Source of the DNA: Candidatus Collierbacteria bacterium
GTDB taxonomy: Bacteria > Patescibacteriota > Microgenomatia > UBA1400 > MFAQ01
Direction of reading: 5' to 3'
Length of the DNA stretch: 64,000 bases
NCBI GenBank assembly: GCA_903884375.1
Contig: CAISER010000025.1
Span: 1,637 to 65,636, forward strand
How positions within the stretch are numbered: the stretch's first letter is position 1; every line of letters begins with the position of its first letter. A program made the translations under genes and the position numbers. Under the pieces are notes generated by a model, which saw only the letters and a program-made list of their open reading frames with translations, did not search any database and was not told the DNA's origin. This document shows, piece by piece, positions 1,284 to 49,363 of the stretch.

Positions 1284-2228
1284 ATGAAAATTTTAGTAAC
1301 AGGAGGCGCCGGTTTTATTGGCTCACATCTTTGTAAAAGATTGTTGGCCGAAGGAAACGAAGTGATTTGTGTAGATAATTTTTTTACCGGACGAATTAAA
1401 AATATAAAGGAATTAAAGAAAACTGACAATTTTTTGGTTGTTAAGCAAGATATTACAAAACCTTTGAAGTTTTCCGGTCTGGATAGAATATACAACTTGG
1501 CTTGTCCGGCTTCTCCTCCTGCTTACCAAAAAGATCCAGTTTTTACTTGGAAAACATGTGTTCTTGGTATGTTGAATGTATTAGAACTGGCAAAGAAAAA
1601 TGACGGTTGTATTGTTTTACAAGCTTCAACATCAGAAGTGTATGGAGATCCCTTGCAACACCCACAAACGGAAAATTATCGTGGAAATGTTAACCCCGTT
1701 GGGATTCGCTCTTGTTATGACGAAGGGAAAAGGGCAGCCGAAACATTGATGATGGATTACCATCGAAAATATAAAATACCGGTAAGGATAATTCGAATAT
1801 TTAATACCTATGGGCCTAATATGGATCCAAAAGACGGCAGAGTGGTAAGTAACTTTGTGGTTCAAGCGTTGACCAACAGAAATATTACGATTTATGGTAA
1901 CGGAACACAAACGAGAAGCTTTCAATATATTGATGATTTACTTGAGGGAATGATAAAAATGATGGAAAACAAAGTTAATTTTTCCGGTCCAGTAAATATT
2001 GGGAATCCGGTAGAGTTTAGTGTAAAAAAATTGGCAATAACTGTTTTACAAATGATCCCTAAATCAAAAAGTAAGATTGTTTATAAAAATATCCCTGATG
2101 ATGATCCAAAACTAAGAAGGCCTGATATCACTTTGGCTAAGGAAAAATTATTATGGGAACCAACCGTAAAATTAGAAGACGGACTGATTCCTACAATCGC
2201 CTATTTCAAGTCTGAAGTGCTGGGGTAA
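1284..2228 (+). CDS. uxs: UDP-glucuronate decarboxylase (UDP-xylose synthase), NAD-dependent SDR epimerase/dehydratase family
   Basis: N-terminal Rossmann motif [14 protein letters not shown], followed by VDNFFTGR, a signature of UXS-type enzymes; 314 aa. Confidence 0.75.
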
Positions 2229-3133
2229 ATAATTGGTTGGCCATAGTCATATATTTTTATAGGAAAGATTTCTTTTTTGATAAGAATATTGTCTTTGTAG
2301 GTTATTTTTAATATCTCTCCGAGACGGGTTTCGTCTGACCACATTTGATCAAAAATGAGATTCCCGAGAGAGTAATATATTGGTTTTCCTTGATAGATTT
2401 CATCAGTTTGAACCCAGTGAGGATGATGGCCAACAACAATATCAGCACCGGAATCTATTGCAAGATGACCTAGAAATATTTGGCGGTTGTTTGGTTTGTT
2501 TTGATATTCCCATCCCCAGTGGAAGGTAGCAATAACAATATCTGCAGAGAGTGCGGCTTCGGATATTTGAGCCGACATAAAATTTTCGTCTAATTGGGGG
2601 AAATCAGAAAATGATATTAGAGCAATTTTCACATTCTTTACTGTATTAAAGACCGGTTTGCCAAGACCAATCGGGGTGATACCGTTATTGGTGAGTATAG
2701 AGATTGTTTCATCAACTCCTTTTTGTCCCTGATTGCCGATGTGATTATTAGCAAGAGAAGCGAAATCCACTCCAGCGTAAACCAAACCAAATACACTTTT
2801 GGGGTCAGCACAAAAAATCATGCCTTTATCGGTTGGACGACAATCCGTAATAAATGGAGATTCCAAATTGATGATGGATATATCTGCTTCGGATAAAAGT
2901 GAGGTGATATTTTTGAAAGGCCAAGTCGGGTCGGCGTATTTTTGGATACGGGTATTAACGGAACGACCCAGCATAACATCGCCAGTGAATATGAAAGTCA
3001 AGGGGGAAGAAATATTAGGAAAAATTAATTCCGGAAGACGACCGGTGATGGGTAATGGTTTGGCGGAATAAAAAAATATTCCAATAAATAATCCAAGGAT
3101 AAAGAGAAAAAACAGCTTTAAATAACTGCTCAT
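2201..3133 (-). CDS. CapA/PGA_cap-family metallophosphoesterase-like protein with N-terminal membrane anchor
   Basis: motifs [28 protein letters not shown] typical of CapA/YwtB; start chosen at internal ATG ([11 protein letters not shown] helix) preceded by GAGGAT Shine-Dalgarno, because the longer ORF start at 3262 would overlap rpsI; convergent 28 nt overlap with uxs. Confidence 0.65.
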
Positions 3134-3221
3134 GAGGACATTATCCTCTATTTGATGTTTTAACTCTTTGGAGACTGACCCCGGAGTACCGAGGACGAGT
3201 TGCTCCGCAAGTCGTCCGAAA

Positions 3222-3701
3222 TTAACGTTTCGGACTTTGTTTCTTGGCACGAGCACGACCACCTTGACCGGCTTTTCTGGTTTCTTTCATTCGAGGATCA
3301 CGAGTAAGGAAGCCCTTGTCACGCATTAATTTTTTATATTTTTCCGAATCAGCTTTAACTAACGCTCTACCAATACCATGCATAATAGCTTCTGCTTGGC
3401 TCATAATGCCGGATCCAGCAACTTTGATCGAACCAGTATATTGACCAAGAACATCAGCAATCACAAATGGGGAGTGAATCATTTTTTTGATAGTTTCTCC
3501 TTTGAAGTAGGTGGAGAGGGGTTTGCCATTAATCGTAAGCTCTTGTTTACCTGGCCAGATTCGAACACGAGCAATCGCAGTTTTACGCCGACCAACAGCC
3601 GAAAAATAATCTTTGGGCATAGCCAAAAGCCCTTTTTTAACCGGTGTTGTTTTGACCGGTTTGATAGCTACTTTGGATTTTTTGGTTAGTTTTTGTGCCA
3701 T
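3222..3701 (-). CDS. rpsI: 30S ribosomal protein S9 (with lysine-rich N-terminal extension)
   Basis: GRRKTAIARV core and C-terminal KKQSPKR; follows rplM with 2 nt gap. Confidence 0.92.
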   Translation of the reverse strand: MAQKLTKKSKVAIKPVKTTPVKKGLLAMPKDYFSAVGRRKTAIARVRIWPGKQELTINGKPLSTYFKGETIKKMIHSPFVIADVLGQYTGSIKVAGSGIMSQAEAIMHGIGRALVKADSEKYKKLMRDKGFLTRDPRMKETRKAGQGGRARAKKQSPKR

Positions 3702-8887: not shown

Positions 8888-10174
8888 CTAATCCAAGAAT
8901 TTATCGTAACTGTACATGAAAAGTTGAGAGTTGATGGTTTTTAAAATCTCAAGAACAACCGAGACAACGATGAGAATGCTGGTACCGCCAATGGCTAACG
9001 ATGCTATACCAGTAAAGCCTGACATTATCGAGGGAAGAATGGCAACCAATCCGAGAAAACTGGCGCCAACCAAAGTAATACGGGTGAGAACAAAATTAAG
9101 ATAGTCTACGGTATTTGGGCCTGGTCTGATTCCCGGAATAAACGAGCCGGAAGAACGAAGATCTTTGGCAATTTTTTCCGGATTGAATACAACGGCAGTA
9201 TAGAAATAGGTAAAAGCAACAACAAGAACAAAGTAAAGAATATTGTAGAGAGCAGAACTGGGAGTAAGAAGACGACTAATCGTGGTAGCAAAACCAGCAA
9301 GAGCAGGTTGATTTACCCTACCCAATATCTGACTAAGCATCCCCGGAATAAGCATAAAAGAAACTGCAAAGATGATGGGAATAACACCGGCTTGGTTTAA
9401 ACGAAGAGGTAAATGAGAACTGGCGACAGCACTGTATGACGAAGAACCTCCACGACGAGCCGACTGAATAGGAATTTCACGAACTGCTTCTCCGGTTCTC
9501 ACAATCGCATAGATAGCGGCGATAGCAAAAATAAGAAAAATTAGATAGGAAAATATTTTAGTCTGATCTATAGTAGTAAGAGTTTGCATAAGATTTATCG
9601 GAATACGACTAACGATGCCAACAAAGATAATTAAACTAATACCGTTTCCCAGACCGTAATCGTTTAACTGTTCACCCATCCAAATAAGGAGAGAGGTTCC
9701 GGCGGCTAAGGTAAAAACGATTGAAGCCAGTTGTAGAGGATCTACTGTAGTAGTTAATCCCTGCTTTTGAAGAAGAAAAATAAGTGCTATACCTTGAAGA
9801 AAACAGAGAGGAATAGTGAGAAGACGAGTATATTGATTAATTTTTTGACGACCATAATCCCCTTCTTTTTGAAGAGCTTCAAGCTTGGGGATAACCATGC
9901 CGAGCATCTGGAAAATAATTGAGGCGTTGATGTAAGGGTTTAGACCAAGGGCCATAATGGAAAAGTTACCTAAAGTGCCACCAGAAAAGACGTCAAGAAG
10001 TGAGAGAAAGGCAGAGGAATTGAACATCTCTTTGAGGGCAGCGAGATTGATCCCTGGTGCCGGAACGTGGGCTACCAGGCGGAAAATAGCGATGATTATG
10101 GCAGTAAAAATTAGACGATTGCGTAGCTCTTTGATTTTTATGAGAGCACGTAGCGGAGCTAATATATTATTCAT
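8888..10174 (-). CDS. secY: preprotein translocase subunit SecY
   Basis: 10 TM helices, conserved IPxPGI; start set at ATG (MNNILAPLRALIKIKELRNRL), the ORF-track start at 10204 is a TTG. Confidence 0.93.
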   Translation of the reverse strand: MNNILAPLRALIKIKELRNRLIFTAIIIAIFRLVAHVPAPGINLAALKEMFNSSAFLSLLDVFSGGTLGNFSIMALGLNPYINASIIFQMLGMVIPKLEALQKEGDYGRQKINQYTRLLTIPLCFLQGIALIFLLQKQGLTTTVDPLQLASIVFTLAAGTSLLIWMGEQLNDYGLGNGISLIIFVGIVSRIPINLMQTLTTIDQTKIFSYLIFLIFAIAAIYAIVRTGEAVREIPIQSARRGGSSSYSAVASSHLPLRLNQAGVIPIIFAVSFMLIPGMLSQILGRVNQPALAGFATTISRLLTPSSALYNILYFVLVVAFTYFYTAVVFNPEKIAKDLRSSGSFIPGIRPGPNTVDYLNFVLTRITLVGASFLGLVAILPSIMSGFTGIASLAIGGTSILIVVSVVLEILKTINSQLFMYSYDKFLD

Positions 10175-35502: not shown

Positions 35503-36255
35503 TTAGTTTTCGATTAAGGAACCCTCAACTACCAAGCGACGTAGTGTGGTTCCAGGAGGGACACAGGTCACTACTTTTATCGTTTTGGAATTGTAATTTT
35601 GTTTTAATACCCAGAGTTCAGAGGGTTTTACTTCAATTACTTTGGTAACCCGGTAGGTGTACTCTTTGTCATTGTATTTGACGAATATGTCCGAGCCAGG
35701 TTTTATTTTTGGAAGATTGGAAAAAATAGTGGTGTATTTTTGTGCATCAAAAAATTGGGGAAGGGTGGAATGGCCAAAAATAACCGGTGAGCCGACCTGC
35801 CCAGGAAGAGCTGTTTGAGGATACTGAACCAGATGTTTAGTAAGATCTTCATCAAAAAGACTAACTTTTGCTTCTGCTAGACCGAGAGAGGGAATCGAAA
35901 TGGTATAAAATTCCGGAATTTCTCCATCATTTTCGATAGGTGAATTGAAAAGCTGATTTTGAGTACTACCTGGGAACCAACTACTGGCTTTGGTGTAGTC
36001 TAAATCACTTAATACTTTGGGTTCACTATCCGAATTTGCTTTTGATTCGTAGTAAACAGGTGACAACAAACCTTGGTCTTTTGAGTTGAAAAGATTTATA
36101 TCTTTAAGCTGATAACTGACAACCGGATAAATAACTGCACCAAGAATCCCAAGCCCCAAAGCAGAAATTAGAGTAGGAATTGTTTTTAGATAGATAGGAA
36201 TTTTTTTCCCGGGATGCGGATTTTTTGCCGTAGCCTTTTTGTACCCGTAGAGCAT
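35503..36255 (-). CDS. sortase-family transpeptidase with N-terminal membrane anchor
   Basis: catalytic His context VIFGHSTL and TLxTC-like motif IKVVTCVPPGTTLRRLVV near C-terminus. Confidence 0.7.
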   Translation of the reverse strand: MLYGYKKATAKNPHPGKKIPIYLKTIPTLISALGLGILGAVIYPVVSYQLKDINLFNSKDQGLLSPVYYESKANSDSEPKVLSDLDYTKASSWFPGSTQNQLFNSPIENDGEIPEFYTISIPSLGLAEAKVSLFDEDLTKHLVQYPQTALPGQVGSPVIFGHSTLPQFFDAQKYTTIFSNLPKIKPGSDIFVKYNDKEYTYRVTKVIEVKPSELWVLKQNYNSKTIKVVTCVPPGTTLRRLVVEGSLIEN

Positions 36256-36256
36256 A

Positions 36257-38434
36257 TTATTTCTCTTTCAGCTCAAACTTGATGTTTTTTAGAGGAATAT
36301 AGTTGGCAAAAACAGGAATTTTGGGAGATATTCTGATGGTCAGATGGTCAAAACCTTGGATTGTGGTAAAAAAAGGACGAATATCGGCGGCCGGTTTCCC
36401 TTTGATAAATCCAGCAGTTTTTATCTCATCAATTTTAGGAAAAAGACTGGTTTCCACATTTATTTTGGCTTCATAGAAACTTCCTTTATTGGTGGGAGTT
36501 TCAAGTTTCATGGAAGTGTTACCGGGAAAAATTTCCGAACCGGAAGAAATTTTTGGAGAAAGCTGATTCGAAACTAACTGAAATAATCCGTCTTCGGAAT
36601 AAACAAGTGTTTCAACAGAACCTTCTAAATCAAGGTTGAGAACGGTGGCTTCTTCACCAACATTTTTATCAAAAGTTTTTTTGGTATAGGTAAAATCAGA
36701 CAGGGCTAAGGATTTATAACCCGTTGTTTGATCCCCTGTCGATGATTGAATCTGGGACGTTATCTTTTCACCAGCGATTTGAAGTAATTTTTCTTGATCA
36801 ATTTTCGAAACTGCTTGAACAGCTCTCGACGTACCACCGGAAAAGTCTGAGTCCGCCACAGCTACAATGGTGTTTTTTGAGTAGTTATCAACTGAAAAAG
36901 CAGAATTTTTGGGTAGATTGTGATCGGCACCAATTTTAGTAGCAGTTACTTTTACGCCTGAGGCAATTCCATAAGCACCCTGAACAATACCGACATCGGC
37001 GCTTTTGGAAGCGATGGTAATAGCCTCAGTAATGAGATAAGAATATTTGCCATTATCAGATAAGATTGAAGCACCTGATTTTAGAATAATCGGAGCAGTT
37101 GATTTGTTGGCGACAGTGATAATACCATTAGCTTTATCACCAACTGTTGCTTCTCCAGTGGTTGGAATTTGTTCTTTGGCGGAACCGAAAACTGTTTTTT
37201 TGGTGGCAAGTAGAGTTGGCGAACCGGAAATAGTGCTCTCGGCTATTGAAATTGAAAATTGATCGTTAATTTTTTCAGGTTTGAAATATATAGAGATGAT
37301 TGCTTGGCCGGTAAAAAGATAAAAAACAAAGCCTAAAATCAAAAATGCGGGAATAATAAGAAGATATAACCAGGAAAATTTACTTATTTTTAAGTTTGGA
37401 AAGTGAAATTTGGGTAATGAAGGAAGGGGTAGGGTATATTTTTGTTTGGGAGTTTTTATAAGAAGCGGTTCTTCGGGTTCAATAGCATATTCCGATTCTT
37501 CAGGTTCCGTTACCGATTCTATAATTGGCTCGGGCGGAGCTTTTTCAAGTGAGTCTGGAGCGGTTGATTCTTCGTAAGAAAAACCCAATTCACTTATAGA
37601 AGATGGTGTAACTTCGGGGATATAAATATTTGTTTCTTCTCGCGGAAGACTTTCTTCGTGAGTGTCTTCGATAACTTGCCCGGTAAGGTACTGAACAGCT
37701 TCGGTTCCTCCGGTGAGAGCAATGGCTTTAATACTAAAATCAACTGCCAATACTTCAACTTTTGGCATGTGCTGAAAAGGAAGGCGTTCTTGCCACGGAT
37801 GTGAAGTTATTCGTTGTTCCTCTTCTTCCAAGACTCCACCGTTAGTGAGAATAAAACGAGTGGGAAGTTTTTCGTGGCCGATCACGGTAAGCCCTTCTTC
37901 TACATCTTGTGCGAGGTCATCTGACCTTGCAGCTTCTTCTGAAGAAGTAATTTCACCTTTTTCTATAATTGAAACAACAACTTTGGTGGTATAAATCTCT
38001 AACAGAATAGCTGTCGGAGGAATACCTTCAAGTTTTTTCATGTAATGGGCAATTGCCGAGTTTATGGGAACCATACCAATCGGGTTAAGGCCCAACTCTT
38101 TTACCAGTCTGGCAATAAGTTTCGTTTTTGAAGGATGTATTTTGCCGTCATGTATCCAAGAATCCGGCAAACCAAAAATGACTTTACGCGGTTCTGCTTT
38201 AATTATTTTGACAGCTTGTTCGAGAGAGGCATCAACACCATTAATAAGTGAGTCTTCATCGGTCCAAGACTCAAATGAACCGACACTTACAACCGAAGGA
38301 TTGCCATTGGCAATTTCCCAAAGGGCGGTTTTGATTAAAGATTCATGGATTTCGATGGCCAAAAAATATTCCGGTTCTGTGGATTTTGATTTGTTCCCAA
38401 ATAGATTTACAAGATTCATGACGACAGTCGTCAA
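36257..38434 (-). CDS. fusion protein: cytoplasmic FtsA/PilM-like actin-fold domain, acidic Pro/Glu linker, single TM helix, about 350-aa extracytoplasmic beta-rich domain
   Basis: N-terminal YFLAIEIHESLIKTALWE...VVSVGSFE resembles FtsA/PilM phosphate-1 region; TM FSWLYLLIIPAFLILGFVFYLF; translationally coupled (ATGA) to alaS; next to sortase. Confidence 0.5.
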   Translation of the reverse strand: MTTVVMNLVNLFGNKSKSTEPEYFLAIEIHESLIKTALWEIANGNPSVVSVGSFESWTDEDSLINGVDASLEQAVKIIKAEPRKVIFGLPDSWIHDGKIHPSKTKLIARLVKELGLNPIGMVPINSAIAHYMKKLEGIPPTAILLEIYTTKVVVSIIEKGEITSSEEAARSDDLAQDVEEGLTVIGHEKLPTRFILTNGGVLEEEEQRITSHPWQERLPFQHMPKVEVLAVDFSIKAIALTGGTEAVQYLTGQVIEDTHEESLPREETNIYIPEVTPSSISELGFSYEESTAPDSLEKAPPEPIIESVTEPEESEYAIEPEEPLLIKTPKQKYTLPLPSLPKFHFPNLKISKFSWLYLLIIPAFLILGFVFYLFTGQAIISIYFKPEKINDQFSISIAESTISGSPTLLATKKTVFGSAKEQIPTTGEATVGDKANGIITVANKSTAPIILKSGASILSDNGKYSYLITEAITIASKSADVGIVQGAYGIASGVKVTATKIGADHNLPKNSAFSVDNYSKNTIVAVADSDFSGGTSRAVQAVSKIDQEKLLQIAGEKITSQIQSSTGDQTTGYKSLALSDFTYTKKTFDKNVGEEATVLNLDLEGSVETLVYSEDGLFQLVSNQLSPKISSGSEIFPGNTSMKLETPTNKGSFYEAKINVETSLFPKIDEIKTAGFIKGKPAADIRPFFTTIQGFDHLTIRISPKIPVFANYIPLKNIKFELKEK

Positions 38435-40269
38435 ACAAATTGTAAATAAAGGCGGCGTGTCCCTGCGCCAAGCGACTCTTGTTTGACTATCTTTATCTTA
38501 GCAAGTTCTTCAGTGTTCGTCACGTGGGGACCTCCACAAATCTCTTTGGAAAACGGATTATTTTTGTTCCCGATGGTGTAGACACTAACAATATCAGGAT
38601 ATTTTTGTCCAAAAAAGGCCATGGCACCTTCTTTTATTGCTTTTTCTTTAGGCATTTCTTCGCGGGTGACCGCTTGTTTTTCTGCGATAGTTTTATTAAT
38701 TAATTCTTCGACCTGTAGGAGCTCTCCGTCTGTTAATTTTTCTGGGTGAGAAAAATCAAACCTTAGTCTTTGCGCTGTTAAATTTGAACCTTTTTGACCA
38801 ATATGGTTTCCAAGTATTTGACGTAGAGCCGAGTGAAGAAGATGAGTAACAGTATGATAAGCGGTGACTGTTTTTGAGTTGTCTTCAAGACCACCCTTAA
38901 ACATACCAACAGAAGCAGTCCGACTAAGTTCTTTGTGTTTTTCAAATTCGGTTTCAAATTGATTGGTATCGATTTTAATATCCATTTGAGACAAAATCTC
39001 TGTGGTAATTTCAATGGGGAAACCGTAGTTTTGGTAAAGGTCAAAGGCTGTTTTCCCATCAATGTGGGGGTTTTTTTGAAGTTCTTTAATTCCTTTATCG
39101 AGTGAGAAACCAAATTTTTTTATTTCTACCCTTATCGTTTCAAAAATAACCGGAATATCTTTTTTTATTTCAAAATATATGGGTGAGTAAAATTGACAGA
39201 CAAGTGAACTTATTGGAGCCATCTTTTCCAGTATTTCGAGATTGCCTGTAAGAAAATACATTTTTACAGCTGCGCGGCGAAGTAGTCTTCTTAAAACATA
39301 GCCTTGAGCTTTATTTGTGGGGAAAACTCCGTCTTTAATCAAAAAAGTTGCAGCAGTTAAATGGTCTGCAATAACTCGCATTGAGGGCTGATTGATAACA
39401 TCAGAGTAAGACTTACCAGATATTTTTTCGATTTCTTGAATCAGGGGGTATAGGCTGCTAATTTTAAACATATCCGGTTCGGAATTGGTAACTGCTTCGA
39501 GTCTGGTAAGCCCACCACCAAAATCAATATTTTTTCGAGGAAGCTCCACCAAAGAACCGTCTTCATTTTTAATATATTGCATAAAAACAGAATTACCAAT
39601 TTCCAAGAAACGTCCACATTCACAGTTGGGGTGACATTTTTCATTTTTAAATGGTGATTTTTCATGAAGCAGACGATTTTCACCAAAATCAAAGAAAACT
39701 TCAGAATCTGGACCGCCTGGTTCACCTGGGGGCATATTTTCCGGCACCCCTGCTCTAGACCACCAATTTTTATTTGACTGATAGGCAAAAATGCGCTCAC
39801 CTTCTTTTGCCGTAAGACCGACTTTTTTAAATAAATCTTGCCAGATGGCAATTGATTCAATATCCTTACCCACTCCAGAACCACCCCCAAATACCGTGAT
39901 AAATAATTTTTTAGGGTCAAGACCAAGACCTTCATCTTTTTTTGTTAAAAATGTAAAAAACCATTCGAGCTGTTTGTCTTTAAAATAATCGCCTAAAGAC
40001 CAGTTCCCTAACATTTCAAAAAAAGTGGTATGACGATTATCACCAATTTCATCAATGTCACCAGAACGGAAACATTTTTGAGAATCAACCAGACGGGTAC
40101 CAAGGGGATGTTTTTGACCTAATAGATAAGGCATCATGGGTTGCATCCCAGCGGAAGTAAAGAGAGTAGTGGCGTCACCTTCTGGAACTAACGAAGAAGA
40201 GGGAATAATGGAATGACCTCGTTTTTCCATAAATAAGAGATATTTCTGCCTTATTTCATTGATGGTCAT
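38431..40269 (-). CDS. alaS: alanine--tRNA ligase, short form (catalytic, tRNA-recognition and editing domains; no C-Ala domain)
   Basis: FTSAGMQPMMPYLLG, FEMLGNWSLGDYFK, editing-site HTVTHLLHSAL and CGGPHV motifs; 612 aa. Confidence 0.88.
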   Translation of the reverse strand: MTINEIRQKYLLFMEKRGHSIIPSSSLVPEGDATTLFTSAGMQPMMPYLLGQKHPLGTRLVDSQKCFRSGDIDEIGDNRHTTFFEMLGNWSLGDYFKDKQLEWFFTFLTKKDEGLGLDPKKLFITVFGGGSGVGKDIESIAIWQDLFKKVGLTAKEGERIFAYQSNKNWWSRAGVPENMPPGEPGGPDSEVFFDFGENRLLHEKSPFKNEKCHPNCECGRFLEIGNSVFMQYIKNEDGSLVELPRKNIDFGGGLTRLEAVTNSEPDMFKISSLYPLIQEIEKISGKSYSDVINQPSMRVIADHLTAATFLIKDGVFPTNKAQGYVLRRLLRRAAVKMYFLTGNLEILEKMAPISSLVCQFYSPIYFEIKKDIPVIFETIRVEIKKFGFSLDKGIKELQKNPHIDGKTAFDLYQNYGFPIEITTEILSQMDIKIDTNQFETEFEKHKELSRTASVGMFKGGLEDNSKTVTAYHTVTHLLHSALRQILGNHIGQKGSNLTAQRLRFDFSHPEKLTDGELLQVEELINKTIAEKQAVTREEMPKEKAIKEGAMAFFGQKYPDIVSVYTIGNKNNPFSKEICGGPHVTNTEELAKIKIVKQESLGAGTRRLYLQFV

Positions 40270-43795: not shown

Positions 43796-45454
43796 TTAAA
43801 CCTCAAGAAGAATGGCTATAACCAGAGGACGTCTTTGGGTATGATCGAAAGCAAATTTCTCAAGTTGGCCTTCAATCTTTTTTCTAATAAATCCCCAATC
43901 TGTAGCTTGACCTTTGAGATCTTTAAGACATGCATAGACATGTTTCCGAGCATCGTTTATCAACTCTTGCGATTCTTTTTGATAAACGAAACCTCTGGAA
44001 ATAATTTCAATATCTCCGGTTACCTGAGAGTTATCTCGACGCATGGGAACAATGGCCAGTAATATGCCGTCGGCGGACATGACTTGTCGGTCTCTTAAAA
44101 CAACCGTTCCAACATCACCAATACCTAAGCCATCTACGTAAACGTTTCTGGTTTCGATTTTGGGACCTTGTTTGACGATTCCTCCTTCCAATACAATGGA
44201 CTGGCCGTCGGAGAGAACAAAAACTTTTTCAGGGTCAAAGTTCATTTCTTTGGCTAGGTCTTTATAAATCATCATGTGACGAAGATTGCCGCCAATAGGA
44301 ATAATGTTTTTGGGTTTTATCAAACGGGCAAGGAGAGTTAAATCACCTCGATATCCATGACCAGAAACATGAAGATTTTCGGAAGTGCCTGAGTATGTTA
44401 CTTGAATACCTCTTTTGTAGAGAGTGTCGAGTAAATCGAAAATGTCACCTTCATTCCCGGGAATAGCATCGGAACTAATGAGTACTTTGTCACCTTTTTT
44501 TAACTTTATCTGAGTATGTTCGTCATTGGCAAGACGATGCATAGCGGAACCAACCTGGCCTTGAGAACCGGAGACAATAACCGTTACTTGGTGTGCGGGA
44601 AGTGTGGAAACTTGCTGACTTTTAATAAATATTCCTTTGGGGATTTTGATAAAACCATTTTTGGCGGCGGCTTCGACATTTTGTTCGACACTACGCCCAA
44701 TGATGGCTACACGACGATGATATTTGGCACTGGCATCGATGGCCATCTGAATACGAGAAATCGAAGAAGACATGGTAGTAAATATCATTTTGCCTTCGGT
44801 GGAGCGAACTTCACTGTCTATGGCTGTGAGTAAAGAACGTTCCGATGGACAGAAGCCGTTTTTTTCAACACGAAGACAGTCGGTAAGCATCAAGTCAACA
44901 CCGTTATTCCCGGCAACGGCCATGGCACCCATATCCGGAGGAAGATTATCTATTGGTGTTAAATCAAACTTAAAATCGGCACCATGATATACGGTTCCGG
45001 CGGGAGTTTTGATGAGAACATGAAAACAGTTGGGGACGGAGTGAGTGATATGAATGAATTCCAAGTGGAAAGGTCCAAGATTTAGAACTCCTTCAACAGG
45101 TGTCATTTTGTTAGTTATGCCAAACTCGCGAACTTTGATTTCGGCAATAGCGATAGCCAATTTGCTTCCATAAACTTCGATGCCTTTAAGACGAGGAAGA
45201 ATGTAAGGCAAACCACCAACATGATCTTGATGGGCGTGGGTTAGAACAATTCCATGAAGCTTTTTATTGGAGTGCTCAAGATAACTAATATCGGGAATAA
45301 CGGCATCGACGCCAAGGGCGTCATCTTTGGGGAAACCCATACCACAATCAATCACAATTTGATCGTTGCCATATTCATATACGTACATATTTTTGGTGAC
45401 GTCACCGACGCCTCCCAAAGGAATAATTTTTAAAGGAATTTTTTTAAAATCCAT
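43796..45454 (-). CDS. rnj: ribonuclease J (metallo-beta-lactamase/beta-CASP)
   Basis: HAHQDHVGGLPY metallo-beta-lactamase motif, beta-CASP and C-terminal domain; 552 aa. Confidence 0.9.
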   Translation of the reverse strand: MDFKKIPLKIIPLGGVGDVTKNMYVYEYGNDQIVIDCGMGFPKDDALGVDAVIPDISYLEHSNKKLHGIVLTHAHQDHVGGLPYILPRLKGIEVYGSKLAIAIAEIKVREFGITNKMTPVEGVLNLGPFHLEFIHITHSVPNCFHVLIKTPAGTVYHGADFKFDLTPIDNLPPDMGAMAVAGNNGVDLMLTDCLRVEKNGFCPSERSLLTAIDSEVRSTEGKMIFTTMSSSISRIQMAIDASAKYHRRVAIIGRSVEQNVEAAAKNGFIKIPKGIFIKSQQVSTLPAHQVTVIVSGSQGQVGSAMHRLANDEHTQIKLKKGDKVLISSDAIPGNEGDIFDLLDTLYKRGIQVTYSGTSENLHVSGHGYRGDLTLLARLIKPKNIIPIGGNLRHMMIYKDLAKEMNFDPEKVFVLSDGQSIVLEGGIVKQGPKIETRNVYVDGLGIGDVGTVVLRDRQVMSADGILLAIVPMRRDNSQVTGDIEIISRGFVYQKESQELINDARKHVYACLKDLKGQATDWGFIRKKIEGQLEKFAFDHTQRRPLVIAILLEV

Positions 45455-45697
45455 ATTTATTTATTTAATTACTAAACTTTCAACACAGAATCACTGCTTG
45501 AATACGCCACAATAAGGTGGCAAAACTTAATTTATTTTACACTTACTAAGGGGATTGTTTTCGGAACCAAAGCTGCAATAAACTTGGGGTCAAAGATACT
45601 TTTCTTAGTCAAGCCAAAACTTAATATAGGACTATTATACCACAATAATAAATAATTAGTGTTTACATTGAAGAGAAAAAGAGTAAACTATTTTTGA

Positions 45698-47062
45698 ATG
45701 GAAAAATTGGTGAAAGAAAGAGTGATTCGAATATTTAATTTATCAGAGGATGTTTGGCCTTTTATTGAAACGATGGGCAACAAAAAGGCAAGAATGTCGG
45801 AGATTGAGGAAAACGCAAACTTGGCCGACCGTGATTTGTTTTCAATGGCTGAGGAGTTTGAGTTTACCTTTATCACTCCCAAAAAACTGGATCCCCATTT
45901 CGTAAACTACTTTATCAAAGTTTGTATGATGCGGGAAATGGAAGTATTGGTTCCCAAAAAAAATAGTGGACTTATTTGTGAGGATATTTTGGCGGATAAG
46001 GAGATTATGAAGAGGCTTGTTAAACTGGGGAAGAGCTGTAAAAGATTGGTGCTTACCGCCTACTCTACTTCGCCATATTTTTTACACTTGGTTGGCGAGT
46101 TACGGAAAAAGGGAATTGAAGTACGAACACCAGAAGCTCCAGATGAGGCTAATGCTTGGACGGTAAATTTTTACGGAAGCAAATCGGGGATAAGACAACT
46201 GACACAGATAAACGGGGCAATTAGAGCGGACTTGAAAATGCCTAATGGAGTTGTTTCCTCGGGAGTGTTGGACTCTGCAAGGATAGCGGCAAATAAATAT
46301 ATAAAGGAAAATGGAGTAGTAATCAAAACAAACAAAGGCCACTCAGGAATGGGAGTACTTATTTTCCGTAAAGGTGATTTGCCGAAAAAATATCGAGAGT
46401 GTCAGAAAAAAATTATTGAAATATTTAACGGAGACAGTTACTGGGAAAAATTTCCGATCGTGGTGGAGTCTTTGGTAAAACCCAATCCTCGGATCGGAGG
46501 AGGTTTTCCAAATGCGGAGTTTTTGATAAAAAAAGATGGCGAGGTAAAACTTTTGTATTACTGTGGAATGCGAGTAGACGACAAGGGCGTTTTTGGCGGA
46601 GTGGAGATAGGAGAAGAAGTATTGCCTCGTCGTGTGACTTCCAGAATTACCGATATCGGTTATCTAATTGGCGAACAGTATGCCGAAGACGGTTATCGTG
46701 GTTTTTTTGATATTGATTTTATTGCCGGAAAAGGTGGAGAGATATTTGTGAATGAGTCGAATGTAAGAGTCACTGGAGGAACACATGTGTATCAAGCAGC
46801 AGTAGAACTGGCTGGGCGAGAGTTTATGAAGAAAGTCTATGTGTTGTCGAATAATAACTACGATATTCCAAACAAAAAAATCTTTACTTTCGACAGACTT
46901 CATAAACTAATGAAACCGATACTTTTTGACAGAAAAACGCGTGAGGGATTGGTGATTGCATCGTCAAATCTATTGGCAATGGGAAAACTGGCTTACATTA
47001 TTTTTGGAAAAAATAAACGTAGAGCTTTGGCCGTCGAGGAAGAGATGACGAGATTATTATAA
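45698..47062 (+). CDS. ATP-grasp superfamily carboxylate-amine/thiol ligase, subfamily unassigned
   Basis: VVIKTNKGHSGMGVLIF matches ATP-grasp phosphate-binding loop (cf. RimK VVxKPxxGSxGxGV); C-terminal FVNESNVRVTGG matches the E-x-N-x-R motif; 454 aa; only plus-strand gene in a 45-kb minus-strand block. Confidence 0.7.
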   Translation: MEKLVKERVIRIFNLSEDVWPFIETMGNKKARMSEIEENANLADRDLFSMAEEFEFTFITPKKLDPHFVNYFIKVCMMREMEVLVPKKNSGLICEDILADKEIMKRLVKLGKSCKRLVLTAYSTSPYFLHLVGELRKKGIEVRTPEAPDEANAWTVNFYGSKSGIRQLTQINGAIRADLKMPNGVVSSGVLDSARIAANKYIKENGVVIKTNKGHSGMGVLIFRKGDLPKKYRECQKKIIEIFNGDSYWEKFPIVVESLVKPNPRIGGGFPNAEFLIKKDGEVKLLYYCGMRVDDKGVFGGVEIGEEVLPRRVTSRITDIGYLIGEQYAEDGYRGFFDIDFIAGKGGEIFVNESNVRVTGGTHVYQAAVELAGREFMKKVYVLSNNNYDIPNKKIFTFDRLHKLMKPILFDRKTREGLVIASSNLLAMGKLAYIIFGKNKRRALAVEEEMTRLL

Positions 47063-47193
47063 ATATAGAATGGACCCCTCTCCCGCTCAACCAGGTTTGT
47101 TACAAAACTGGTTTCGCAATCGTCGCAAATTCCTTATGCTATGTTTTTTATAATCTGCACAAGGCATATTATGAAAAACCGGGAATTTACTCC

Positions 47194-48255
47194 TCACCAC
47201 TTTGGTAGAAATGATTTTATATTTTCGGGCGTGAGAGATATTGTCTTGGCTTGACCGGTAACAATTAATAGAGCAACTTTACGGACAATACCTTCGATCG
47301 TGCGATTTAGGGTACGAATACCGGCGTCGTAACCTAGAGGACGAATAATCATCGGCCAGAGAGCAGGGTCAATGGTAATGATTGAGGGATCCATACCGGC
47401 GGCTTCCAAAGCTTTGGGGAATAGATATTCGAGGGCAATATGAGTTTTTTCATCGTCGGAGTAAGAAGGCATTTGAATTGGTTCCAAACGATCCATAACG
47501 GCGGTCGCTAAATTGCCCGTGTTGTTGGCCGTGGCGATAAACATAACTTCGGAAAGGTCAACGGGGTAATCAATAAAGTGATCGAGAAAACGATTGTTTT
47601 GCGTTGGATCAAGAAGCTCGACCAAAACACCCATAATATCAGCTCTGGCTTCTTCGGTAACACGGTCGATTTCATCCAGAAGAATAATGGGGTTTTTAAC
47701 TCCCGTATCACAAAGAGCTCTGACCACATAACCAGGTTCGGCTTCAAGATGTAGACGAGACTGGCCACGTAAGTCTTTAGCTGAACCCAAACCTCCAAAA
47801 GGAATACGGGCAATGGGGCGGCCAAGCGCTTCAGAGAGGGCATAAGCAAAAGTAGTTTTACCGGTACCAACAAGACCAACTAAGCAAACAATCGGAGCTC
47901 TCCCCGCTCCAAGGTTTCTGGTGGTACGGAGTTTTAAGATAGACATATATTCAAGAATTCGTTCCTTGACCTCGTTCATGCCGTAGTGATTTTTATCAAG
48001 TGTGGCCTTGATAGCAGTTAAGTCAATCGGGCGTTCGACTCTTTTTGTCCAAGGAACTTTGGCAACCCAAGAAATATAGTGGCTGATTTTTTCGTATTCT
48101 TCAGAAAAAAATCCTTGGGTGGAAAGACGCTCGAGACGAGCAATCATATCAAGAGTATTTTCTTTTAACTCTGGGGGTGTTTCGATACTTTCAATTTTTT
48201 GACGAAGATCATCAAGAAGAGTATTGGCTTTTGTGGTGATTGGAGCAGGATCCAT
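47194..48255 (-). CDS. Lon-like AAA+ ATPase lacking both the Lon N-terminal (LAN) domain and the S16 protease domain
   Basis: near-collinear match to the LonA AAA+ module: YISWVAKVPWTKRVERP...LDKNHYGMNEVKERILEYM (cf. Lon LDxDHYGLExVKxRILEYLAV), Walker A GLVGTGKTT, Walker B ILLDEID, sensor/Arg-finger region; protein ends exactly where the Lon protease domain would begin. Confidence 0.75.
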   Translation of the reverse strand: MDPAPITTKANTLLDDLRQKIESIETPPELKENTLDMIARLERLSTQGFFSEEYEKISHYISWVAKVPWTKRVERPIDLTAIKATLDKNHYGMNEVKERILEYMSILKLRTTRNLGAGRAPIVCLVGLVGTGKTTFAYALSEALGRPIARIPFGGLGSAKDLRGQSRLHLEAEPGYVVRALCDTGVKNPIILLDEIDRVTEEARADIMGVLVELLDPTQNNRFLDHFIDYPVDLSEVMFIATANNTGNLATAVMDRLEPIQMPSYSDDEKTHIALEYLFPKALEAAGMDPSIITIDPALWPMIIRPLGYDAGIRTLNRTIEGIVRKVALLIVTGQAKTISLTPENIKSFLPKW

Positions 48256-48367: not shown

Positions 48368-49363
48368 TTATCGAATATTGTAGGTTGGTGGCTTAGTGCT
48401 GCCGCTACCGGTGTTAATTCTGCACAAACTATCGTTAGTACAAGTGCTTTTAGGACATGTTGAGCTAATATTGACAGTTTTTGATATTGATTTACAAAGA
48501 TTGTTACTACATGTTTTGTAAATACAAACTTTTGTGTTTGCCACTCCTGATCCCACTGTCGAGCATTTACATGTAATGCTCCCATCTTTACAGGTACACA
48601 CTCTGCTCTTTGATTGTCCTGTTCCACAACCTAATGATGCCGGACAATTACCGGAACATTGATTATATGATTGACCGCTGGCAAAAGTATAACCATCACT
48701 GGTAGTGCAAGTGCCAGGCTTAATGATGGTACCGGCACAAGTATTATCATTTGAGCCTTTGCATGTACTAGTAGGACAGGTCGAACTTTGTTTAAAGGTC
48801 ATGTTATATGACTTACACTGACCCTGATAACACTGGGACCATTTACATTCTTTAGTCCCTGAGGGAACGGGCTCTTTATCGGCTATGCATTGGCCGACTG
48901 CGGAACTGGCGGTATAGTTTAAGGCAATTTTTCCATTACCACAGTGATAACCAGAGCAACACTGCCGGACATCATTCCAAGAAAAAACTCCACAGTGTCC
49001 ACCTTCTTCCACACACCTATTTGAAGTTGGTCGAGGTTTTTCAGTGCAATTCGATGGTTTACAGCTCGCGGTAAACGCTCTGCTCTCGCCTCCACCAGTG
49101 TAAGCGCAAATTTCTCCGGTTTTGCAGCCACCTTCCCAACCACATTTATTTGCGGTTGCCAGGCTGCTGCCACAAGTAACGTTTGCCGCTGCTGGTTCAC
49201 TTTCTGGAGCATTGGGGGCTACGGCTTGTCTGGCAGTTAATTGAGCAGCAATAAAAAGAACGGCACCAAGAATAGCAGCAAAAATTAAGACAGGAAAAAA
49301 CTTTTTCAAAAAAGGATTAGTATGCTGTTTGACAATCGTCTTCTTGGGCATCTTCTTGGCCAT
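48368..49363 (-). CDS. membrane-anchored, extremely cysteine-rich extracytoplasmic protein (about 32 Cys in about 270 residues, Thr/Ser/Gly-rich, repeated S-T-C-P-x-S-T-C-like units)
   Basis: Lys-rich N-terminus, one TM/signal-anchor (FFPVLIFAAILGAVLFIAAQL), then Cys-rich domain; locally GC-richer than surroundings; no bacterial family recognised. Confidence 0.7.
   Translation of the reverse strand: MAKKMPKKTIVKQHTNPFLKKFFPVLIFAAILGAVLFIAAQLTARQAVAPNAPESEPAAANVTCGSSLATANKCGWEGGCKTGEICAYTGGGESRAFTASCKPSNCTEKPRPTSNRCVEEGGHCGVFSWNDVRQCCSGYHCGNGKIALNYTASSAVGQCIADKEPVPSGTKECKWSQCYQGQCKSYNMTFKQSSTCPTSTCKGSNDNTCAGTIIKPGTCTTSDGYTFASGQSYNQCSGNCPASLGCGTGQSKSRVCTCKDGSITCKCSTVGSGVANTKVCIYKTCSNNLCKSISKTVNISSTCPKSTCTNDSLCRINTGSGSTKPPTYNIR

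Follow-up and report, generated by a model that had tools for sequence, protein, structure and literature searches.

A deeply divergent PGM1-like ATP-grasp protein, probably a ligase, carried as a stand-alone gene by Collierbacteria and other Microgenomates

In this study, we describe a gene of Candidatus Collierbacteria, located at positions 45698-47062 (+ strand) of a 64,000-nucleotide stretch of contig CAISER010000025.1 (assembly GCA_903884375.1), the whole of which is called here the window. The gene is complete (454 codons, from an ATG start to a stop at 47062), and its product is probably a carboxylate-amine ligase of the ATP-grasp type that is located in the cytoplasm, is competent for catalysis, falls in the PGM1/BesA/LdmS structural clade and uses amino-acid- or peptide-like substrates. 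The analysis establishes its fold, its intact catalytic residues, its structural clade, its vertical spread, the constraint acting on it and the lack of a family-wide partner gene. The window protein is a deeply divergent member (16-20% identity) of the PGM1-like ligases, whose architecture and presumed chemistry are known; what is unusual is its lifestyle, that of a stand-alone, slowly evolving core gene of the Candidate Phyla Radiation (CPR) and not of an enzyme belonging to a natural-product cluster.

The subfamily, left unassigned by an earlier note on this DNA, can be placed by fold, the nearest group being PGM1/BesA/LdmS. The best Foldseek match is the peptide ligase 8ynd/8ynq (E 3e-24, TM-score up to 0.83), and the structural correspondence with PGM1-like ligases runs over the full length, including the extra domains at the N and C termini. 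Beyond the PGM1 group the fold-comparison scores fall off sharply, to ~21 for PurK and PylC, 14-17 for Ddl, ~13 for GshB and RimK, and 11.7-12.6 for the graspetide ligases CdnC, MdnC and PsnB, a drop with which Foldseek agrees. A phmmer search of the PDB with the window protein finds 8ynd (2e-6), PGM1 (1.5e-3) and BesA (2e-3), matches that improve to 1.4e-9, 8e-7 and 2e-5, respectively, with a profile built from 34 family members; the stretch aligned by sequence to these three proteins comprises amino acids 277-450. The Pfam search for ATP-grasp families that the earlier note had proposed gave sub-threshold matches only, namely PreAtp-grasp (PF18604; amino acids 59-133, 20.0 bits, cut-off 27.5), PGM1_C (PF18105; amino acids 408-448, 19.7 bits, cut-off 22.5) and ATPgrasp_ST. 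Among the 34 relatives, 26 match PF18604 (E <= 0.01, best E 1.6e-9) and 25 match PF18105 (same threshold, best E 2.3e-5). The claim that the N-terminal ~200 residues resemble nothing thus survives only in so far as PF18604 stays below its threshold in the window protein, since most relatives do match it and the N-terminal domain superposes on PGM1 in the fold comparison. This region is a PGM1-type pre-ATP-grasp domain with a clade-specific helical insert, and the C-terminal ~80 residues form a PGM1_C-type domain.

The earlier exclusion of RimK, Ddl, GshB, PurK/PurT and cyanophycin synthetase stands, none of them being either a family-profile match or the nearest fold. In this regard, a divergent ATP-grasp enzyme of standard metabolism (PurK/PurT/PurD, biotin carboxylase, Ddl, GshB or CPS-like), or a non-ligase such as a kinase, appears very improbable. 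NCBIfam does return the 'biotin carboxylase-like' family PRK06524, together with BesA and LdmS, all far under their cut-offs (28.8 versus 750 bits for the BesA equivalog NF042917 and 16.5 versus 475 for the LdmS equivalog NF047900). The matches to standard metabolic enzymes score 35.8 versus 684, so that the confident hit that could have overturned the earlier view was looked for and is absent; they span only the shared motif region of the C-domain (amino acids 296-369), whereas the full-length fold match favours the PGM1 group by a wide margin and the family has conserved N- and C-terminal domains of its own.

The three-domain fold, the ATP-binding lysine, the glycine-rich loop, the Mg2+ ligands and the catalytic arginine of the ATP-grasp superfamily are all present. 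The N-terminal, Rossmann-like pre-ATP-grasp domain (approximately amino acids 1-150; 45698-46147, +), whose borders were drawn approximately from PF18604 and secondary structure, carries the motif N14-L-S-E17-D18-V-W20 directly after strand 1, as well as the clade-specific helical insert (amino acids 20-50). It is followed by the ATP-grasp core, comprising the central and C-catalytic domains (approximately amino acids 151-375; 46148-46822, +; delimited by invariant columns and motif coordinates), with K162/G164/R166, K210, the glycine-rich loop 210-220, E257, D340, E353, N355 and R357 as key residues. The phosphate-binding loop and the E-x-N-x-R motif, both already recognised in the earlier note, are confirmed with invariant catalytic residues: the former is the flexible, glycine-rich KTNKGHSGMGV (amino acids 210-220; 46325-46357, +), and the latter lies in the Mg2+-ligand and catalytic motif NESNVRVTGGTH (amino acids 352-363; 46751-46786, +), which reads N-E353-S-N355-V-R357-V-T-G-G-T-H363. 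The PGM1_C-like domain (approximately amino acids 376-454; 46823-47059, +), defined by PF18105, aligns to the C termini of 8ynd and PGM1.

Across 34 close and 75 distant homologs, K210, G214/G217/G219, E257, D340, E353, N355 and R357 are invariant. In the tier of homologs at 25-32% identity, K162, R166, K210, G217, E257, G301, D340, E353, N355 and R357 are 99-100% conserved, N14 is kept in 97% and E17 in 93%. A further set, D18, E35, G160, T211, H215, R292, S354 and E447, is confined to the clade of the window protein, and these residues are candidate specificity determinants.

By analogy with the structural clade, ATP-Mg2+ would be bound between the central and C-domains through K210, the glycine-rich loop, E257, D340, E353 and N355. 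The substrate carboxylate would then be phosphorylated to an acyl-phosphate, stabilised by R357, and attacked by an amine (an amino acid or a peptide N terminus), leaving one amide bond, peptide or isopeptide, with release of ADP and Pi. The loop formed by N14 and E17 after strand 1 would hold the ammonium group of the substrate, a role that we presume to resemble that of Glu15 of DdlB. Both the single ligation step and the amino-acid or peptide-like nature of the substrates are what we infer from the characterised relatives, and the product would most likely be either a small molecule of the dipeptide or peptide-conjugate kind or a peptide that branches off an envelope precursor. That the substrate might be basic or carry an ammonium group is hinted at, weakly, by the conserved acidic residues of the N-domain (E17, D18, E35, D96, D100) and by the arginase-family gene that occasionally lies next to the ligase.

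Comparison with the characterised enzymes highlights what is shared and what is not. BesA (PDB 8yi6), the L-propargylglycine--L-glutamate ligase, joins glutamate and propargylglycine, and the window gene has no bes-type cluster around it. The Streptomyces ATP-grasp peptide ligase 8ynd/8ynq is the best match of the window protein both by sequence in the PDB and by Foldseek, at 16-18% identity and with the confident sequence alignment confined to the C-terminal third. PGM1, the pheganomycin peptide ligase of Streptomyces cirratus (PDB 3wvq/3wvr; ~18% identity), links an acid of the guanidino-phenylglycine type with the N terminus of a ribosomal peptide (PMC8939145) and lies in an actinomycete antibiotic cluster, whereas the window gene stands alone in a CPR housekeeping block, without precursor or tailoring genes nearby, and its product differs from PGM1 in carrying a conserved, clade-specific N-terminal insert (D18, E35 and others). 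LdmS of Staphylococcus aureus (L-aspartate--L-methionine ligase, PDB 7r8p), which joins aspartate and methionine and relies for its specificity on R-x-N-x-S after the catalytic arginine (PMC9486568), is a shorter protein without a PGM1_C-type end. The residues Arg47, Tyr252, Asn255, Asn307 and Ser309, which determine the specificity of LdmS, are not recognisably kept in the window protein, and its partner, an hmrA-type carboxypeptidase, has no counterpart at the window gene. No paper on the CPR family was found in the literature, and no open one on BesA or 8ynd.

The gene is far from being an orphan, as had been thought: a word-indexed search found at least 732 homologs, and a relative is encoded at 202 loci of GTDB contigs (one genome per species), the nearest being Collierbacteria proteins at 88-89% identity. 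The best 120 homologs are full length, 54-100% identical and all named 'hypothetical', and those that carry a taxonomic label are assigned to Collierbacteria, Gottesmanbacteria, Microgenomates or Patescibacteria. The hits of an exhaustive HMMER search, grouped at 50% identity, form 593 clusters, of which 128 have E <= 1e-30; the clusters grade smoothly down to ~25% identity and are nearly all ~450 amino acids long. One metagenome-assembled genome, nzgw413 (JAHFKQ01), holds two copies of the ligase on separate contigs (L011 and L024; 74% and 73% identical to the query), which could be a paralog, a strain mixture or bin contamination.

Across genome pairs, the divergence of the ligase keeps pace with that of the adjacent core genes; at locus L010, for example, identities are 73% for the ligase, 77% for RNase J, 70% for FtsK and 72% for PNPase. 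Because its rate of divergence equals that of these neighbours, the ligase appears, as judged from sequence comparison, to be under purifying selection of housekeeping grade, unlike systems of conflict or of peptides that are made by ribosomes and then modified after translation (RiPPs). It is widely and vertically distributed in Microgenomates and the CPR, as a slowly evolving, stand-alone core gene. Recent horizontal transfer was rejected on the native composition of the gene (GC 0.396, GC3 0.385), carriage by phages on the lack of any relative among IMG/VR viral contigs, and a role in defence on the lack of any match of the ATP-grasp protein to the PADLOC defence profiles.

The genomic context was surveyed at 82 related loci, where all open reading frames (ORFs) up to 6 kb away were clustered. 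A universal partner gene was rejected, as no neighbour is common to the whole family and conservation runs by lineage only, with three predominant arrangements. No biosynthetic neighbour recurs throughout the 82 loci either, and the window gene is not part of a PGM1-type cluster that could provide a non-proteinogenic acid or a precursor peptide. In the Collierbacteria type (A), the divergent upstream neighbour is RNase J (12-18 loci) and the convergent gene downstream is a Lon-like AAA+ gene (22 loci in total, immediate neighbour in 12), within a larger synteny block from FtsK to PNPase-S15. In the Gottesmanbacteria type (B; ~32-37 loci, e.g., L001 7193-11398), the ligase is preceded directly by genes for a 130-144-residue protein and a 783-residue DUF8128/DUF87/TraG-like membrane ATPase (71-100% identical across loci), and followed by an Idi-like NUDIX gene, all co-directional and separated by 24-75 bp; this order is kept in the deep branch L091/L092, where the ligase retains no more than 40% identity to the query. 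Some 2.4 kb downstream, 22 of the Gottesmanbacteria-type loci carry a VanW/PG_binding_4 gene. A third type (C; ~9 loci) shows a DEAD-box helicase gene divergently upstream and an S-adenosylmethionine-dependent methyltransferase gene convergently downstream, the latter overlapping the ligase gene.

Contexts of remote homologs are heterogeneous, with purA/purB at L085. At L084 (6523-14989), the P0226 homolog (~25%) lies in a co-directional run with five GNAT genes, a HAD hydrolase and an amidase, which suggests small-molecule tailoring. A gene of the arginase/agmatinase family adjoins the ligase at L048, L050 and L037, divergently at 34 bp in the first two, which are of type C and where it stands immediately upstream. 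The first of these loci (CP011212.1; arginase-family gene at 9001-9867), with a ligase that shares 52% identity with the query, bears the label candidate division TM6 instead of Microgenomates, which could reflect transfer or mislabelling.

The immediate flanks of the window gene were inspected for short precursor-like ORFs rich in Thr/Ser and Asp/Glu, as the earlier note had advised, and neither holds a plausible one. The divergent intergenic region shared with RNase J (45455-45697, 243 bp) has no credible small ORF, and the convergent spacer to the Lon-like gene (47063-47193, 131 bp) contains neither a precursor-like ORF nor a predicted terminator; flank ORFs of at least 20 residues are low-complexity, overlapping, and neither Ser/Thr- nor Asp/Glu-rich. 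A graspetide synthetase, or a RiPP macrocyclase of another kind with a ribosomal precursor encoded nearby, is hence scarcely credible here: although graspetide clusters do occur in CPR genomes (PMC8939145) and the nucleophile of PGM1 is likewise a ribosomal peptide, the nearest fold is not MdnC/PsnB-like and there is no adjacent Thr/Ser, Asp/Glu precursor. The leader of 243 bp was also searched for a riboswitch or T-box as a clue to the substrate, an idea that was rejected, since Rfam gave nothing at E <= 1 in 45300-47400 (and nothing at gathering score in the whole window). Promoter-like hexamers in this leader are not in excess (7 found versus 5.7 expected from shuffled sequence), and the counts of the promoter and terminator scan do not rise above those of shuffled sequence.

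A different kind of context is provided by two further CPR subfamilies, which were retrieved with a profile from distant members and are paired on the same contigs. In a neighbour-joining tree, the window clade is sister to the pair formed by A2 (~480 residues, 44-50% identical to the query) and B (~445 residues, 32-35%), whose genes are adjacent and co-directional in Roizmanbacteria-type contigs. The operons lie at L086 8001-10785, L087 2979-6829, L088 6953-12170 and L090 6563-11941, and at L089 an A2 and B-like pair is found without the other partners. A Ddl-like ATP-grasp ligase (PRK01372, E 8e-48, sub-threshold) joins A2 and B at L087, L088 and L090, and a third paralog, 27% identical to the query, is present at L088. 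In four of the five sister loci (L086, L087, L088, L090), genes for a divergent M17 leucyl aminopeptidase and a CBS protein lie beside the operon, sometimes accompanied by a resistance-nodulation-division efflux pump. At L090 there is in addition a 503-residue MurL-like protein, shortened at L086 (NF041275, E 2e-9, 36 bits versus a cut-off of 700; for the activity of MurL, see PMC5808125). Such operons may constitute a stepwise, multi-ATP-grasp peptide assembly line, possibly incorporating a D-residue and independent of Mur ligases, and they support amino-acid or peptide substrates for the wider family.

The same operons bear on an envelope-specific form of the ligase assignment, in which the window enzyme would extend a peptidoglycan precursor by one amino acid, forming a branch of the stem peptide or a cross-bridge as the enterococcal ATP-grasp D-aspartate ligase does, or would act in this way on another wall peptide. 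The pairing of the paralogs with Ddl-like and MurL-like proteins, the housekeeping-grade constraint and the VanW/PG_binding_4 gene of the Gottesmanbacteria-type loci are consistent with such a function, which we nonetheless regard as unlikely: the mur, fem and ddl genes are not linked to the window-clade gene, a Ddl-like gene lying within 10 kb in only 4 of the 82 loci, the weak MurL match occurs in just two of the five sister loci, and the VanW linkage is possibly mere synteny. The 64-kb window itself contains no ligase paralog and no Ddl-like gene.

The convergence with a proteolysis-related ATPase led the earlier note to think of peptide- or protein-modification systems. The Lon-like gene (47194-48255, -) encodes 353 residues that correspond to the AAA+ module and lid only, matching positions 250-571 of the 795 of TIGR00763 and lacking both the LAN N-domain and the Lon_C protease domain. 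Since it is 77-88% identical over at least 20 Collierbacteria-type loci, a conservation above that of PNPase, it is a real protease-less Lon-type ATPase. A system in which the ligase modifies proteins or peptides together with this ATPase, e.g., by tagging a protein so that it is unfolded or degraded, could draw on the unusual nature of the neighbour, on its convergent abutment to the ligase in several Collierbacteria-type loci (gaps of -11 to +2 bp), and on a ClpB/C-like AAA+ gene that follows the ligase operon in three sister-clade loci. Such coupling is nevertheless improbable, as the link is limited to 22 of the 82 loci and to a single lineage-level synteny block, in which RNase J, FtsK, PNPase and S15 are retained as well, the convergent arrangement of the two genes precludes their co-transcription, and the nearest structural relatives use small molecules or short peptides, not folded proteins. 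Between the Lon-like gene and PNPase lies a gene for a cysteine-rich protein of 331 residues with an N-terminal hydrophobic anchor or signal (48368-49363, -), which matches nothing in Pfam or PADLOC and has no homolog in the syntenic loci, even those of 88%-identical relatives; the block, conserved in other respects, thus contains at this point an insert that evolves fast or is variable.

Several considerations weigh against the assignment of the window protein as a PGM1-like ligase of amino acids or peptides. Its sequence is no more than 16-20% identical to those of the characterised enzymes, it scores under the curated cut-offs in both Pfam and NCBIfam, and carboxylases and kinases are also built on ATP-grasp folds. 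The R-x-N-x-S of LdmS reads R-x-T-x-G in the window protein, and because of this replacement the specificity of LdmS is not transferable. The sister operons consist of paralogs 27-50% identical, and their context may not carry over; as the window gene is single, their role is not directly transferable to it. On the whole, the interpretation offered by the earlier note is supported in part.

As for the gene itself and its surroundings, the database form of the protein (P0001, 450 residues) corresponds to an alternative GTG start at 45710, and the gene is apparently transcribed as a monocistronic unit. Its orientation opposite to that of its surroundings, as previously noted, is borne out: RNase J (43796-45454, -) and the Lon-like gene both lie on the - strand, as do ~95% of the window genes, the + strand carrying just 5 of ~75 greedy ORFs, that of the ligase included. 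The window is a CPR housekeeping block, with the S10/spc/alpha ribosomal-protein operons, rpoB/C, EF-G/EF-Tu, alanyl-tRNA synthetase and FtsK, as well as RNase J, PNPase, S15, IF-2/NusA, DnaK/DnaJ/GrpE and LepA. Despite the predominance of genes on the - strand, the + strand has a positive GC skew in 28 of the 32 bins of 2 kb (1-64000); the coding strand is C-rich and A-rich, an unusual relationship between skew and orientation. The window also encodes a PGA_cap protein (CapA-like capsule synthesis/metallophosphatase; 2201-3262, -), a sortase (35503-36255, -) and, directly upstream of the latter, a 725-residue protein without Pfam match (36257-38434, -), a candidate substrate of the sortase or pilus protein. 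The alanyl-tRNA synthetase (38431-40269, -) has only 612 residues, covering tRNA-synt_2c and tRNA_SAD; typical bacterial enzymes have ~870, which suggests that the C-terminal region has been lost.

All together, with the window protein placed in the PGM1/BesA/LdmS clade, the biochemical search can be restricted to amino-acid, peptide and amine substrates and the false lead of a RiPP or proteolysis-coupled system is removed, and the multi-ligase operons of the sister clades offer a tractable way to the class of product. CPR/Patescibacteria genomes are tiny, and almost any enzyme that they retain can be expected to be of importance; a ligase of ~450 residues that consumes ATP, is conserved like PNPase across Microgenomates and is annotated as 'hypothetical' everywhere represents a concrete gap, open to testing, in the metabolism mapped for these bacteria. 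As a tentative proposal, clearly less likely to be true than not, the window protein may be the founding member of a branch of PGM1-like enzymes, CPR-wide and vertically inherited, that performs an essential step of primary metabolism or envelope synthesis, namely the making of one particular dipeptide or peptide branch, perhaps on a precursor of the cell wall or on a peptide with D-amino acids. In a sister lineage, this branch would have expanded into operons in which several ATP-grasp enzymes assemble peptides without Mur ligases, comprising 2-3 paralogs together with a Ddl-like ligase, a MurL-like epimerase and a leucyl aminopeptidase. An essential or envelope-related peptide product would raise the significance of the ligase, and, if the proposal is true, the PGM1 clade, seen so far mainly in the natural-product pathways of actinomycetes, serves ultra-small bacteria in a housekeeping role.
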